Of a stretch of 63,988 nucleotides of DNA, positions 38,312-42,099 are shown piece by piece. Position numbers and translations under genes: made by a program. Source of the stretch: Candidatus Atribacteria bacterium (GTDB lineage Bacteria > Atribacterota > Phoenicimicrobiia > Phoenicimicrobiales > Stramentimicrobiaceae); the NCBI GenBank assembly GCA_029556475.1, contig JAKQEP010000029.1, positions 1 to 63,988 on the forward strand, written 5' to 3'. The number at the start of each line of letters is the position of its first letter. Position 1 is the stretch's first letter. The notes beneath the pieces are model-generated. The model saw only the letters and a list, made by a program, of their open reading frames with translations. It did no database searches and was not told where the DNA came from.

Positions 38312-38340
38312 TTGACAAGATAATAAATAGAATTTATAAT
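38312..38340 (+). promoter_or_regulatory. Consensus sigma-70-type promoter for the T-box leader
   Basis: TTGACA (38312-38317), a 17-nt spacer, then TATAAT (38335-38340). Confidence 0.6.
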
Positions 38341-38384
38341 ATCAAAAAGAAATAAAATATTAAATAGGATAAAAATAAATAAAA

Positions 38385-38633
38385 TTTTTGAGAAGAAGAG
38401 TAAATCCTTGTTTGACATACAGAGAGCCGTTAAAGGTGAAAAGACGGTTGCAAACCTGATTGAAGTCCGGCTTCTCTTGAAAGACAATTTGACCTGGATA
38501 TTTAAAATATAATTTTATGAATATTTTTATTTTGAATAGAGGATAGAATTTTCTATTAAATTAGGGTGGCACCACGTGAATAAACTCTCGTCCCTAAGGC
38601 ATTGAACAATTGCCAGAAGACGAGAGTTTTTTT
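38385..38633 (+). promoter_or_regulatory. T-box leader (transcription attenuation), probable Ser specifier
   Basis: The Stem I base TGAGAAGAAGAGTA (K-turn and S-turn) pairs with CTTCTC at 38471-38476. An AGAGA element is present. The T-box sequence AAATTAGGGTGGCACCACG lies at 38558-38576. The terminator pairs AAACTCTCGTC with GACGAGAGTTT and is followed by a T-run. The antiterminator pairs TTAGGG with CCCTAA. The Specifier-loop 3' strand is GAAG-TCC-GG. The UGGC bulge implies a G73 discriminator. Confidence 0.85.
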
Positions 38634-38650
38634 ATTTCAGGGAGCAATAG

Positions 38651-39094
38651 ATGAAGAACAAATTTAAAGATTTTGAATTAGTGGAACATACGGCAGATAT
38701 AGGTTTGAAAATATATGGGAAGGACGAAAAAGATTTATTTATCAATGCAGCTCGAGGAATGTTTTTTTTGATTACTGGTTCTCGTATTTCTCTAGCTCCG
38801 GAAAGTATACGAAAATACTATGCATTAGAAAGTGAAGCTCCTGGCAGAGAAGATTTATTGGTTACCTGGTTAAATGATTTATTATATATTCATTTTACTG
38901 ATTTAGTAATCTTTGATGATTACATTATTGATTATATTTCAGAAGAAGTGATTAAATCTAAAGTCAGAGCTGTAGAGATTAAAGATTCCCCCTATCAGAT
39001 AGTTAAAGAGATAAAAGCAGTTACTTACCATAATTTGCAAGTTTGCCAGAATAAAAACGGAATATGGGAGGCAAACATAGTATTTGATATTTAA
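38651..39094 (+). CDS. Archease (RtcB activator)
   Basis: 147 aa, with EHTADIG near the N-terminus and KAVTYHNL near the C-terminus. It lies immediately upstream of rtcB. Confidence 0.8.
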   Translation: MKNKFKDFELVEHTADIGLKIYGKDEKDLFINAARGMFFLITGSRISLAPESIRKYYALESEAPGREDLLVTWLNDLLYIHFTDLVIFDDYIIDYISEEVIKSKVRAVEIKDSPYQIVKEIKAVTYHNLQVCQNKNGIWEANIVFDI

Positions 39095-39179
39095 TGTTAA
39101 ATCTTTTAATATTCTTATAGAGGAACGATACTGATTGAGAAGATTCTCATCATCTTTACTGTAAAGGAGGGATGATACT

Positions 39180-40643
39180 GTGACTATTAAAGATAATTGG
39201 AAAAATATATTGAAACAGCAAGATACTTATATTTGGGACATACCAAAGGAATTTAATCCTGGAATGCTGGTGGACGGGCGTGTTTACGCATCTGAAAGTC
39301 TTTTGAAACAGATAGTTACTGATAAATCACTTGATCAAGTAGTCAATGTGGCTTGTTTGCCAGGTATTGTGGGCTATTCTTTGGCAATGCCAGATATTCA
39401 CTGGGGATATGGATTTCCCATAGGGGGTGTGGCAGCAACCCGTCTGGAAAATGGGGTTATTTCACCTGGAGGCGTAGGCTTTGATATAAATTGTGGGGTA
39501 AGACTGATACGTTCTAATTTAAAACTTAAGGATGTACAGGAGAGAATGAGTCAGTTGGTAGAACATCTTTACAATAAAATTCCTTCCGGAGTTGGTTCCA
39601 GAGGAATCATTAAGTTAAATCTGGCTGAGGCAAAAAGAGTTTTGGCAGAAGGTTCGCAATGGGCAGTGGCAAATGGGTTTGGAGTAGAAGAAGATATTAT
39701 TTATACTGAAGAGAATGGTAAAATGGCGCAAGCCAATCCAGATATTATAAGCAACAAAGCAATTGAGCGCGGAAGTACCCAATTGGGTACATTGGGTTCC
39801 GGGAACCATTTTTTAGAGATACAGGTAATTGACCAGATTTATCAGCCAGAAAAAGCTAAACAAATGGGATTAGAAGAGGGGATGATTACTGTTTTAGTTC
39901 ATACTGGTTCCCGGGGTTTTGGCCATCAGGTCTGTACTGATCATCTCTCAATTATGCAAAAAGCTGTGCAGAGATATCGTATCGTTTTACCGGATAGGCA
40001 GTTGGCCTGTGCACCGATCAATTCCCCTGAAGGAGAAAATTATTATCAGGCAATGTGTTGTGCCGCTAATTTTGCCTGGGCTAATCGTCAATGCATAACC
40101 CACTGGCTAAGAGAAGTCTTTGAGCGGGTATTTCGAATATCGCAGCGTGAGTTAGGACTAAACCTGATTTATGATGTAGCTCACAATATTGCCAAAATGG
40201 AACTTCATCAACTTCAGGGTGCTGAGGTAAAATTGTGTGTTCACCGAAAAGGTGCTACCAGGGCTTTCCCACCGCGCCATCCCGATTTGCCGTCAAAATA
40301 TAAAGAGATTGGGCAACCCGTTTTAATTCCCGGCGATATGGGACGAGGGTCCTTTGTTCTAATAGGTAATGAAAAGGCTATGCGGGAGACATTTGGTTCT
40401 ACCTGTCACGGTGCCGGTAGAGTGCTAAGTCGAGGGGCTGCTATAAAGGCAGTTAGAAATAGGAATATTGCTCAGGAATTAAGGGAAAGAAATATTATAG
40501 TCAAAGCCAGAAGTAGGGATACTCTGGCTGAAGAAATGCCTGAAGCCTATAAAGATGTTTCAGAAGTGGTAAATGTGATGGACCAGAGTGGCATTTCCAG
40601 CAAAGTTGCCAGAATGCGTCCATTGGGAGTTATAAAAGGATAA
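39180..40643 (+). CDS. rtcB: RNA 3'-phosphate/2',3'-cyclic phosphate-5'-OH ligase RtcB (long archaeal/eukaryal-like form)
   Basis: GTG start behind AAGGAGGG. Motifs GGVGFDINCGVR, GSGNHFLE, HTGSRGFGH and HGAGR. Confidence 0.9.
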   Translation: MTIKDNWKNILKQQDTYIWDIPKEFNPGMLVDGRVYASESLLKQIVTDKSLDQVVNVACLPGIVGYSLAMPDIHWGYGFPIGGVAATRLENGVISPGGVGFDINCGVRLIRSNLKLKDVQERMSQLVEHLYNKIPSGVGSRGIIKLNLAEAKRVLAEGSQWAVANGFGVEEDIIYTEENGKMAQANPDIISNKAIERGSTQLGTLGSGNHFLEIQVIDQIYQPEKAKQMGLEEGMITVLVHTGSRGFGHQVCTDHLSIMQKAVQRYRIVLPDRQLACAPINSPEGENYYQAMCCAANFAWANRQCITHWLREVFERVFRISQRELGLNLIYDVAHNIAKMELHQLQGAEVKLCVHRKGATRAFPPRHPDLPSKYKEIGQPVLIPGDMGRGSFVLIGNEKAMRETFGSTCHGAGRVLSRGAAIKAVRNRNIAQELRERNIIVKARSRDTLAEEMPEAYKDVSEVVNVMDQSGISSKVARMRPLGVIKG

Positions 40644-40698
40644 TAAAAAATTGTTTAAGAAATAGCAATAACATAGTTTCAGGAGGGTTTTTAAGAAG

Positions 40699-41973
40699 AT
40701 GTTGGATTTAAAATTAATCCGTTCAGAACCGGATCAGGTAAAAGCAGCCCTGAAGAAGAGGGGGCAGGATACTGGTAGTATCGATTATATATTAGAAATT
40801 GATGGTAAACGCCGGAAGATTATCTTTGACTCAACAGCCTTAAAACATGAGAGGAATGAGGTATCTGAGGAGATTGCCCGCATGAAAAAAGAAAAAAAAG
40901 ATGTCCAGGCAAAAATTGCAGCCATGCGAGAGGTATCTGCCAGAATAAAAGAGATGGATAACGAAATAAGGTCTATAGAGCAAGAGATTCAAAATATACT
41001 ATTAGAAATTCCCAATATTATTGATGATAGTGTACCAGTTGGTGCCAATGAAGAGAGTAATCAGGAAGTGAGAAGATGGGGTACACCCAGAGAATTTGAT
41101 TTTGAGCCGAAAGCACATTGGGAATTGGGTGAAAAACTGGATATTCTTGATTTTGAAAGAGGAGCAAAAGTTTCTGCAGCACGCTTTACCGTTTTAAAAA
41201 ATGAGGGAGCAAGACTGGAGCGAGCCTTAATTAATTTTATGCTAGATATTCATACCAGAGAACATAACTATCAAGAAATACTCCCGCCTTTCTTGGTAAA
41301 TGCTCAGACTATGATGGGTACCGGTCAGTTACCAAAATTTGAAAATGAACTATTCAAAACAAATGATGAATTATATTTGGTTCCTACAGCGGAAGTTCCC
41401 TTAACCAACCTGCATCAGGGCGAAATATTGCCAGAATCAGTTTTGCCAATTTATTATACAGCTTATACTGCCTGTTTCAGAAGAGAGGCAGGCTCTTATG
41501 GTAAAGATATAAGAGGATTAATAAGACAGCATCAGTTCGATAAGGTGGAATTGGTAAAAATTTCAAAACCAGCAGATTCTTTTCTTGAGCTGGAAAAGCT
41601 AACTCAAAATGCGGAAGTTATTTTGCAAAGATTAGAATTACCCTATCGTATGGTAGTTCTATCTACAGGAGATACGGGCTTTTCGGCTGCCAAGACTTAT
41701 GATTTAGAAGTATGGTTGCCATATCAAGGAAAATACAGAGAGATATCCTCCTGTAGTAACTGTACTGATTTTCAGGCGCGCAGAGCCAATATTCGTTTTC
41801 GGGAAGAAGAATCCGGCAAGGTTAATTTTGTGCATACCTTAAATGGTTCCGGAATAGCGGTGGGCAGAACGATGGTTGCTATTATAGAAAATTTTCAGGA
41901 ACAGGATGGTTCAATCGTTATACCAGATGCCCTGCGTCCCTATATGAATGGATTGCAAAAAATTTCCAGTTAG
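40699..41973 (+). CDS. serS: Seryl-tRNA synthetase
   Basis: N-terminal coiled-coil arm followed by a class II core ([16 protein letters not shown]). Confidence 0.95.
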
Positions 41974-42013
41974 GGTAAAATTTTAATGCTGTCTATTTCT
42001 TGAGGTCATTTGC

Positions 42014-42099
42014 GGAGGGATGTCCGAATGGCAAGGGGCCGGTCTTGAAAACCGGTGTAGGCGTAAGCTGTCTGGGTTCGAATCCCAGTCCCTCCGCCA
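42014..42099 (+). tRNA. tRNA-Ser (anticodon UGA), CCA encoded
   Basis: Acceptor stem GGAGGGA/TCCCTCC, discriminator G and an encoded CCA. The anticodon stem CCGGT/ACCGG carries the loop CTTGAAA. A long variable arm and the T-arm CTGGGTTCGAATCCCAG are present. Confidence 0.9.

Follow-up and report, generated by a model that had tools for sequence, protein, structure and literature searches.

A predicted serine-specific T-box ahead of archease, rtcB and serS in a Candidatus Atribacteria contig

T-box regulons are usually described as consisting of synthetase, biosynthesis and transporter genes, and an RNA ligase would be an unusual addition to them. In the first 63,988 nucleotides (nt) of contig JAKQEP010000029.1 of a Candidatus Atribacteria bacterium (the whole stretch is called the window below), a T-box leader stands in front of the gene for archease, followed by rtcB for an RNA ligase, by serS for seryl-transfer RNA (tRNA) synthetase (SerRS), and by a tRNA-Ser gene. 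Why should an RNA ligase and its activator be placed under a switch that reads the aminoacylation of tRNA-Ser? Judged by its sequence, the leader is a bona fide Ser-specific transcriptional T-box for which tRNA-dependent read-through is predicted; it is a canonical T-box with an unreported cargo. We consider it probable that the serS leader sits at the sole position available to it, the 5' end of an inherited operon, and that rtcB is co-regulated by virtue of an older gene order. Within the literature searched, no paper links a T-box to rtcB or describes the T-box-archease-rtcB-serS arrangement, in agreement with the initial annotation of this DNA, which knew of no description of RNA ligation coupled to the sensing of aminoacylation.

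The leader and the genes behind it

The initial annotation had placed a perfect promoter and a T-box leader before archease and not before serS, and both were found there, as were all the other sequence features that it listed, at the coordinates given (Table 1). When positions 38280-38680 were scanned permissively with the T-box model RF00230, the leader aligned to model positions 1-219 with 88.4 bits (E 4.6e-20). The covariance model therefore recognises it over its full length, although the score is under the curated gathering score of 93 bits. A default Rfam scan of the whole window gave no T-box because of this difference of 4.6 bits, and annotators will miss the element at the default threshold. 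The low score is probably due to Stem IIA/B, which is mostly deleted in the window leader, while Stem I, Stem III and the antiterminator align well.

The features of the T-box class were found in the leader one after another. The S-turn is formed by AGUA (38399-38402) and GAA (38462-38464), and a codon followed by a purine stands next to it in the Specifier loop. The distal Stem I motifs AGAGA (38421-38425) and GGUGAAA (38435-38441) both align to the RF00230 consensus, and a K-turn-like UGA/UGA can be read in the sequence. The T-box core is AGGGUGGCACCACG (38563-38576) and contains the bulge, which is of the UGGN type. The terminator shares its 5' arm with the antiterminator (overlap 38582-38595), in keeping with the initial annotation, which called the two structures mutually exclusive; it folds with -25.7 kcal/mol (z -4.3), and none of 200 shuffles (0/200) folds as well. 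In a consensus scan, the region 38000-42500 holds a single 12/12 sigma-70 site, namely the promoter of Table 1.

Table 1. Coordinates of the promoter, the leader elements and the genes of the operon in the window
Feature	Position	Strand	Basis and details
Promoter, sigma-70-type	38312..38340	+	TTGACA-17-TATAAT, 12/12 consensus match
T-box leader (predicted): Stem I, reduced Stem II region, Stem III, antiterminator	38379..38598	+	RF00230
Specifier loop 3' strand, GAA-G-UCC-G	38462..38469	+	Specifier codon UCC 38466-38468
Antiterminator with T-box bulge	38563..38595	+	aligned to RF00230 antiterminator; UGGC 38567-38570
Intrinsic terminator, 11-bp stem and U-run	38582..38633	+	mutually exclusive with antiterminator
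Archease, 147 amino acids	38651..39094	+	PF01951, E 6.7e-31, 107.8 bits, profile 1-136 of 136
RtcB RNA ligase, long archaeal/eukaryal type, 487 amino acids, GTG start	39180..40643	+	PF01139, 599.8 bits, E 4.6e-180
Seryl-tRNA synthetase, 424 amino acids	40699..41973	+	TIGR00414, PF02403, PF00587
tRNA-Ser(UGA), G73, encoded CCA	42014..42099	+	ARAGORN; RF00005 57.1 bits

The genes behind the leader are clearly assigned. SerRS scores 570.8 bits against TIGR00414, for which the curated equivalog cut-off is 301.65. RtcB aligns end to end with the P. horikoshii enzyme (1uc2/4dwq; 613.9 bits, E 1.7e-183), and D102, C105, H210, H241, H335 (in the AHNI motif) and H410 align to D95, C98, H203, H234, H329 and H404 of that protein. 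All six positions are conserved, and we take them to be catalytic (metal-binding Cys, His and Asp, and the guanylylated His). The RtcB of rtcBA operons belongs to a shorter, archease-independent type. The nearest homologues of the window's RtcB bear the names Atribacterota or Caldatribacteriota, and a malic enzyme gene flanks the operon.

The gaps within the operon measure 85 nt (archease-rtcB), 55 nt (rtcB-serS) and 40 nt (serS-tRNA). None of them contains a hairpin that beats shuffled sequence or a plus-strand terminator-like site, which bears out the earlier statement that archease, rtcB and serS follow one another without a terminator. A hairpin at 39149-39176, between archease and rtcB, pairs across GGAGG, the ribosome-binding site of rtcB, and with z -0.9 it is probably not meaningful. 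A weak promoter-like site (9/12) lies at 41953-41981, ahead of the tRNA gene.

Conservation among relatives and in other phyla

Exact-protein look-ups and a metagenome scan yielded ten further distinct loci whose RtcB is 65-83% identical to that of the window. Archease, rtcB and serS lie on one strand in nine of the ten, with unrelated upstream neighbours; in the tenth, L094, the contig stops just past rtcB. A T-box was found immediately 5' of archease in seven of these Atribacterota-like loci, with RF00230 scores of 78.3 (L081), 85.8 (L085), 110.6 (L087), 104.8 (L089), 119.3 (L094), 118.8 (L095) and 107.6 bits (L096). The position of the leader before archease is therefore not peculiar to the window. 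The tRNA-Ser(UGA) gene also recurs downstream of serS in seven close relatives.

The window leader and its seven orthologues were aligned, and the eight leaders are the basis of the following counts. A 12/12 promoter with a spacer of 17 or 18 nt lies at the same place in seven of them, and the eighth has an 11/12 match. Canonical helices were named explicitly on the alignment, in place of the fold given by RNAalifold; one helix of that fold (columns 122-128 with 237-243, CCACCC/GGGUGG), which displaced the lower Stem I helix, was judged spurious. In the five named canonical helices 94.7% of the cells are paired, compared with 41-51% in slid controls. Pair changes on both sides number 10 in the canonical helices and 1-3 in the controls, and the covariation score was not matched by any of 500 shuffles. 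For example, the helix beneath the Specifier loop covaries from A-U to G-C, and the terminator stem is preserved in all eight leaders through G-U pairs and one double change. The sequence around the leader motifs averages about 60% column identity, with compensatory changes, while the distal motifs AGAG and GTG and the UGGC bulge (8/8) are invariant. The initial annotation had listed both a K-turn and an S-turn; both are present in the window and the S-turn is kept in the orthologues, but the K-turn sequence is not conserved in most of them.

All eight leaders share the pattern GAA-N-UCC-R in the Specifier loop, where UCC is invariant, N is G, A or U and R is G or A, and in most of them the lower Stem I helix starts immediately 3' of the purine. 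The Specifier is therefore UCC, a serine codon, as first proposed. According to TBDB, UCC is the commonest Ser specifier and serves 65% of the Ser-family T-boxes (PMC7778990). The registers GUC, AUC and UUC, of which GUC and UUC had been thought conceivable, are ruled out since their first base varies (G/A/U). A proline register (CCG or CCA) is disfavoured, since it would not be followed by a conserved purine and since the UGGC bulge calls for G73, whereas A73 is the usual discriminator of bacterial tRNA-Pro.

The C of UGGC pairs with the discriminator G73, and the nearby tRNA-Ser has this base. To this extent the match proposed between the leader and the neighbouring tRNA stands. UCC, however, matches the anticodon GGA; as an effector, the neighbouring tRNA-Ser(UGA) is therefore not its Watson-Crick cognate. 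In several relatives this tRNA gene is also preceded by promoter-like sites of its own (9/12 to 10/12). Genes for tRNA-Ser(GGA) near the cluster were seen in other phyla only.

Two relatives depart from the common pattern. In L086 (3264-3494) there is no T-box ahead of archease, and a different hairpin with a U-run lies just before this gene. In L084 a remnant of 32.6 bits (1837-2060) comprises only the 3' half, with a UGGU bulge and the terminator, and GC-rich repeat-like sequence occupies the expected position of Stem I. By their sequences these would be two apparent T-box losses inside the clade, and in both loci archease, rtcB and serS are still together.

Neither a promoter of serS nor termination after rtcB, which together would have spoken against the initial annotation, was found by consensus scans in the window and its relatives. 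In the ten loci scanned, no promoter site of at least 10/12 lies within 300 nt 5' of serS, and sites of 9/12 are seen in four of the ten. No T-box was found in any rtcB-serS gap of the relatives. This gap is long in L087 (531 nt) and L095 (356 nt), and in neither was a second T-box, a promoter or a plus-strand terminator-like site found; the archease-rtcB gap of L085 likewise showed no T-box, promoter or terminator. The long rtcB-serS gaps arise because a PF05635-type gene was inserted or has decayed there, or because of repeat-like sequence. In L089 a PF05635 (23S rRNA IVP) gene on the same strand is inserted between rtcB and serS (5566-5925), a decayed copy of such a gene fills the gap of L087 (about 5558-5900), and the gap of L095 contains repeat-like hairpins. 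In L089, as in the other two, the plus strand of this interval shows no promoter-like or terminator-like site.

The gene order was also followed beyond this clade, in a background set of about 160 loci among the matches listed, with RtcB 55-62% identical and drawn from genome and metagenome contigs of many other phyla. Among these matches, archease lies directly 5' of rtcB in 50/75 and 46/70 assessable distant loci (96/145), and serS directly 3' of rtcB in 11/75 and 7/59 (18/134). The serS-linked loci come from Omnitrophota, Planctomycetia, NPL-UPA2 and unclassified organisms, and their rtcB-serS junctions often measure just a few bases. In a motif scan the T-box core was absent upstream of every serS-linked distant locus among the matches listed. 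Outside the clade, L170 was the one motif candidate ahead of archease, and Rfam rejected it.

When 169 RtcB sequences are placed on a neighbour-joining tree, serS linkage requires 4 parsimony changes, compared with about 26 when the states are shuffled, and it falls into four clades. It is found in all 10 scorable members of the Atribacterota-like clade and in every scorable member of a distant clade with 16 members. Archease-rtcB-serS is thus a recurrent cluster across several mostly uncultured phyla. The order tsf-pyrH-frr-tRNA-Lys-archease-rtcB-serS in L112 is an example of a translation-gene neighbourhood, and in several loci of the distant clade tRNA-Ser(GGA) and tRNA-Ser(UGA) lie farther downstream of serS.

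Some smaller features of the distant clusters were seen as well. A tRNA-Lys gene lies 5' of archease, mostly directly adjoining it, in L112 (1042-3065), L016, L023, L068, L101, L103, L113 and L115. In the Omnitrophota loci L017 (2674-4062) and L023 (3569-4981), a gene for about 465 amino acids separates archease from rtcB within the cluster with serS; its product matches DUF4139, and an N-terminal LSM-like match is weak. An open reading frame for 218-237 amino acids abuts or overlaps the 3' end of serS in L112 (6277-6933), L017 (6862-7575) and L023 (7842-8531). It has no Pfam match and may count as another conserved gene of the cluster.

Known systems and the place of the ligase genes

The closest known counterparts are the serS T-boxes of Bacillota (RF00230, UCC Ser family, PMC7778990), which the window leader resembles in RNA family, mechanism and specificity. 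They share the S-turn Stem I, UCC with a purine, AGAGA and GGUGAAA, UGGC for G73 and the competition of antiterminator and terminator, as well as control of the seryl-tRNA synthetase gene and a tRNA-Ser gene after serS. The differences are that the host is an atribacterote, that serS is the third gene after archease and rtcB, that Stem II and IIA/B are reduced in the window's subclade, and that the window scores just under the cut-off. No paper mentioning T-boxes in Atribacterota was found in the searched literature. The cysE-cysS operon of B. subtilis is another T-box operon whose synthetase gene is not the first gene, and like the window it has its T-box at the 5' end and the synthetase behind another gene. 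Its first gene, however, belongs to the same amino-acid pathway, whereas no connection with serine is known for archease or RtcB.

On the side of the ligase, the window shares with the 'tRNA splicing operon' of Desai et al. 2014 (PMC3973293) an archease gene directly 5' of a long, archease-dependent-type rtcB. Such operons were reported from archaea and diverse bacteria, with a tRNA m5C methyltransferase as the sole occasional partner named and a synthetase unmentioned (PMC3973293); the window operon differs in that it is extended by serS and lies under a riboswitch. Expression of RtcB is also tied to the state of tRNA in the RtcR/sigma-54 rtcBA operon of Proteobacteria, where, in Salmonella, 5' tRNA halves that end in a cyclic phosphate are the ligand of the RtcR CARF domain (Hughes et al. 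2020, PMC7790460). That system uses a protein sensor, a sigma-54 promoter and rtcA as the partner gene, whereas in the window an RNA sensor would read the aminoacylation of intact tRNA-Ser. The genes flanking the operon include neither rtcA nor rtcR; no search for them was made elsewhere in the window.

Based on these observations, the locus would work as follows. The strong consensus promoter would drive a polycistronic transcript of archease, rtcB and serS. When tRNA-Ser is charged, the terminator would form and transcription would end before archease. When it is uncharged, its NCCA end would pair with UGGC and the antiterminator would be stabilised, and all three genes would then be transcribed, with tRNA-Ser(UGA) maybe included. 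A single transcript gated by the T-box is expected from the sequence. The same holds for the joint induction of ligase, activator and synthetase by uncharged tRNA-Ser, as the initial annotation had read the locus, since rtcB and serS are not separated by a terminator or a good promoter and the T-box and its promoter are conserved.

What does this arrangement mean for the ligase? The Ser specificity of the T-box matches serS, and therefore the switch is most simply read as serving this gene. In an operon of this kind, a leader could control serS only from the 5' end of the operon. The gene order exists in other phyla without a T-box, and therefore it is not tied to the switch; archease and RtcB would be co-regulated because serS belongs to the older archease-rtcB-serS cluster. 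That L086 and L084 keep the cluster intact after the T-box was lost or eroded also counts for this reading. Several points weigh against it. The T-box of the window falls short of the gathering score with a reduced Stem II region, and the tRNA-Ser(UGA) with G73 is the only tRNA in the 64-kb window, where the cognate tRNA-Ser(GGA) was not seen. We infer co-transcription and the response to tRNA from the sequence alone, and we infer the evolutionary order of events as well. The promoter and terminator scans used simple consensus patterns, which weak or non-sigma-70 promoters inside rtcB and RNase processing sites would escape, and the background frequencies rest on a non-random sample. Finally, the positional reading leaves the retention of archease-rtcB-serS across several phyla unexplained.

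This retention is where a functional coupling has its best arguments. RtcB and archease might act on tRNA-Ser, or on tRNA damage that shrinks the chargeable tRNA-Ser pool, so that inducing the ligase with SerRS would be beneficial; we regard this as unlikely, and it is just as doubtful that the cross-phylum linkage reflects such a shared function. The linkage is kept in at least four RtcB clades over several phyla, all scorable members of the two large clades have it, the junctions of only a few bases hint at co-expression or at coupled translation, tRNA genes border the cluster (tRNA-Lys upstream and tRNA-Ser downstream), and the catalytic residues of RtcB are intact. On the other hand, nothing in our analysis bears on the identity of the RtcB substrate, and a tRNA cleaved in the anticodon loop is unable to read the Specifier; therefore the T-box would not directly sense such damage. 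The loss or decay of the T-box in L086 and L084 left the cluster undisturbed, about 87% of the archease-rtcB loci sampled among the matches listed have no serS nearby, and the tsf-pyrH-frr context resembles a generic housekeeping neighbourhood. The suggestion of the initial annotation that tRNA-Ser, or tRNA damage more generally, is an RtcB substrate thus gained no support beyond the co-regulation itself, and the gene order occurs without a T-box elsewhere. A stronger form, which we find quite unlikely, would dedicate archease-dependent RtcB to the seryl-tRNA system, where it might, for instance, rejoin cleaved tRNA-Ser or other tRNAs with long variable arms. If it were true, the retention of the cluster across Atribacterota, Omnitrophota, Planctomycetota and NPL-UPA2 would be explained, and RNA ligation would be part of the Atribacterota response to a shortage of charged tRNA-Ser. 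It would also give the first defined physiological substrate for a bacterial archaeal-type RtcB and a new class of T-box output.

The extent of the regulon could also be smaller than we assume, with the T-box governing only archease-rtcB or part of serS expression. Most transcription of serS would then start at an unrecognised promoter within or after rtcB, and the tRNA would have a promoter of its own. This has some appeal for serS, presumably an essential gene and situated about 2 kb 3' of the attenuator, and the 9/12 sites before serS in 4/10 loci, the 9/12 to 10/12 sites before tRNA-Ser in several, and the long gaps (L087, L095) or inserted gene (L089) of some relatives fit it. Yet a Ser-specific T-box makes sense only with serS as its target, and the lack of any site of at least 10/12 before serS in ten loci contrasts with the perfect promoter that is conserved ahead of the T-box. 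Moreover, there is no terminator after rtcB, the window gap is just 55 nt, and the long gaps are accounted for by the 23S-rRNA-IVP-type gene, inserted or decayed, and by repeat-like sequence. We hold this division of the operon to be very unlikely. Almost no credence can be given to the idea of a leader that has lost its function and is decaying, with the operon expressed constitutively from its strong promoter. The window copy is indeed below the gathering score with most of Stem IIA/B missing, and within the clade L084 keeps a remnant only and L086 has lost the T-box. Against this, the S-turn, UCC with its purine, AGAGA and GGUGAAA, UGGC and the terminator with its U-run are all intact, and the motifs stay invariant in eight leaders amid about 60% column identity and compensatory changes. 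Natural T-boxes of the glyQS type also function without Stem II.

If the coupling is merely positional, as we favour, the locus shows how a riboswitch regulon can grow through operon architecture. RtcB and archease levels in Atribacterota are predicted to track the charging of tRNA-Ser. We know of no protein-spliced tRNA introns in bacteria, and the locus offers a modest clue to what archease-dependent RtcB does in them. The synteny of archease-rtcB-serS across phyla is a concrete comparative lead, and its retention is the more interesting residue of the finding.

Further observations around the cluster

A few features outside the operon were noted during the analysis. In L086, a T-box of 71 bits, followed after 124 nt by another T-box core (8075-8367), precedes the gene for the small subunit of carbamoyl-phosphate synthase and may be a tandem T-box. 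In L085, two tandem matches to the PyrR binding site (8075-8264), both of them short of the gathering score by about 1 bit, lie before a xanthine/uracil permease gene. In the lineage of L081 (7333-9253; also L082 and L083), a DNA methylase with a C-terminal SNase domain and an MjaI-type restriction enzyme are inserted between tRNA-Ser and the glutamate racemase gene. A similar methylase-SNase reading frame lies 3' of tRNA-Ser in the Omnitrophota locus L017 (8149-9450), and the tRNA-Ser gene may be an insertion site for islands. The window itself contains two other riboswitches on the plus strand that score above their gathering scores: an FMN riboswitch at 4961-5131 (91.7 bits) and, at the extreme end of the window, a lysine riboswitch at 63781-63972 (111 bits).

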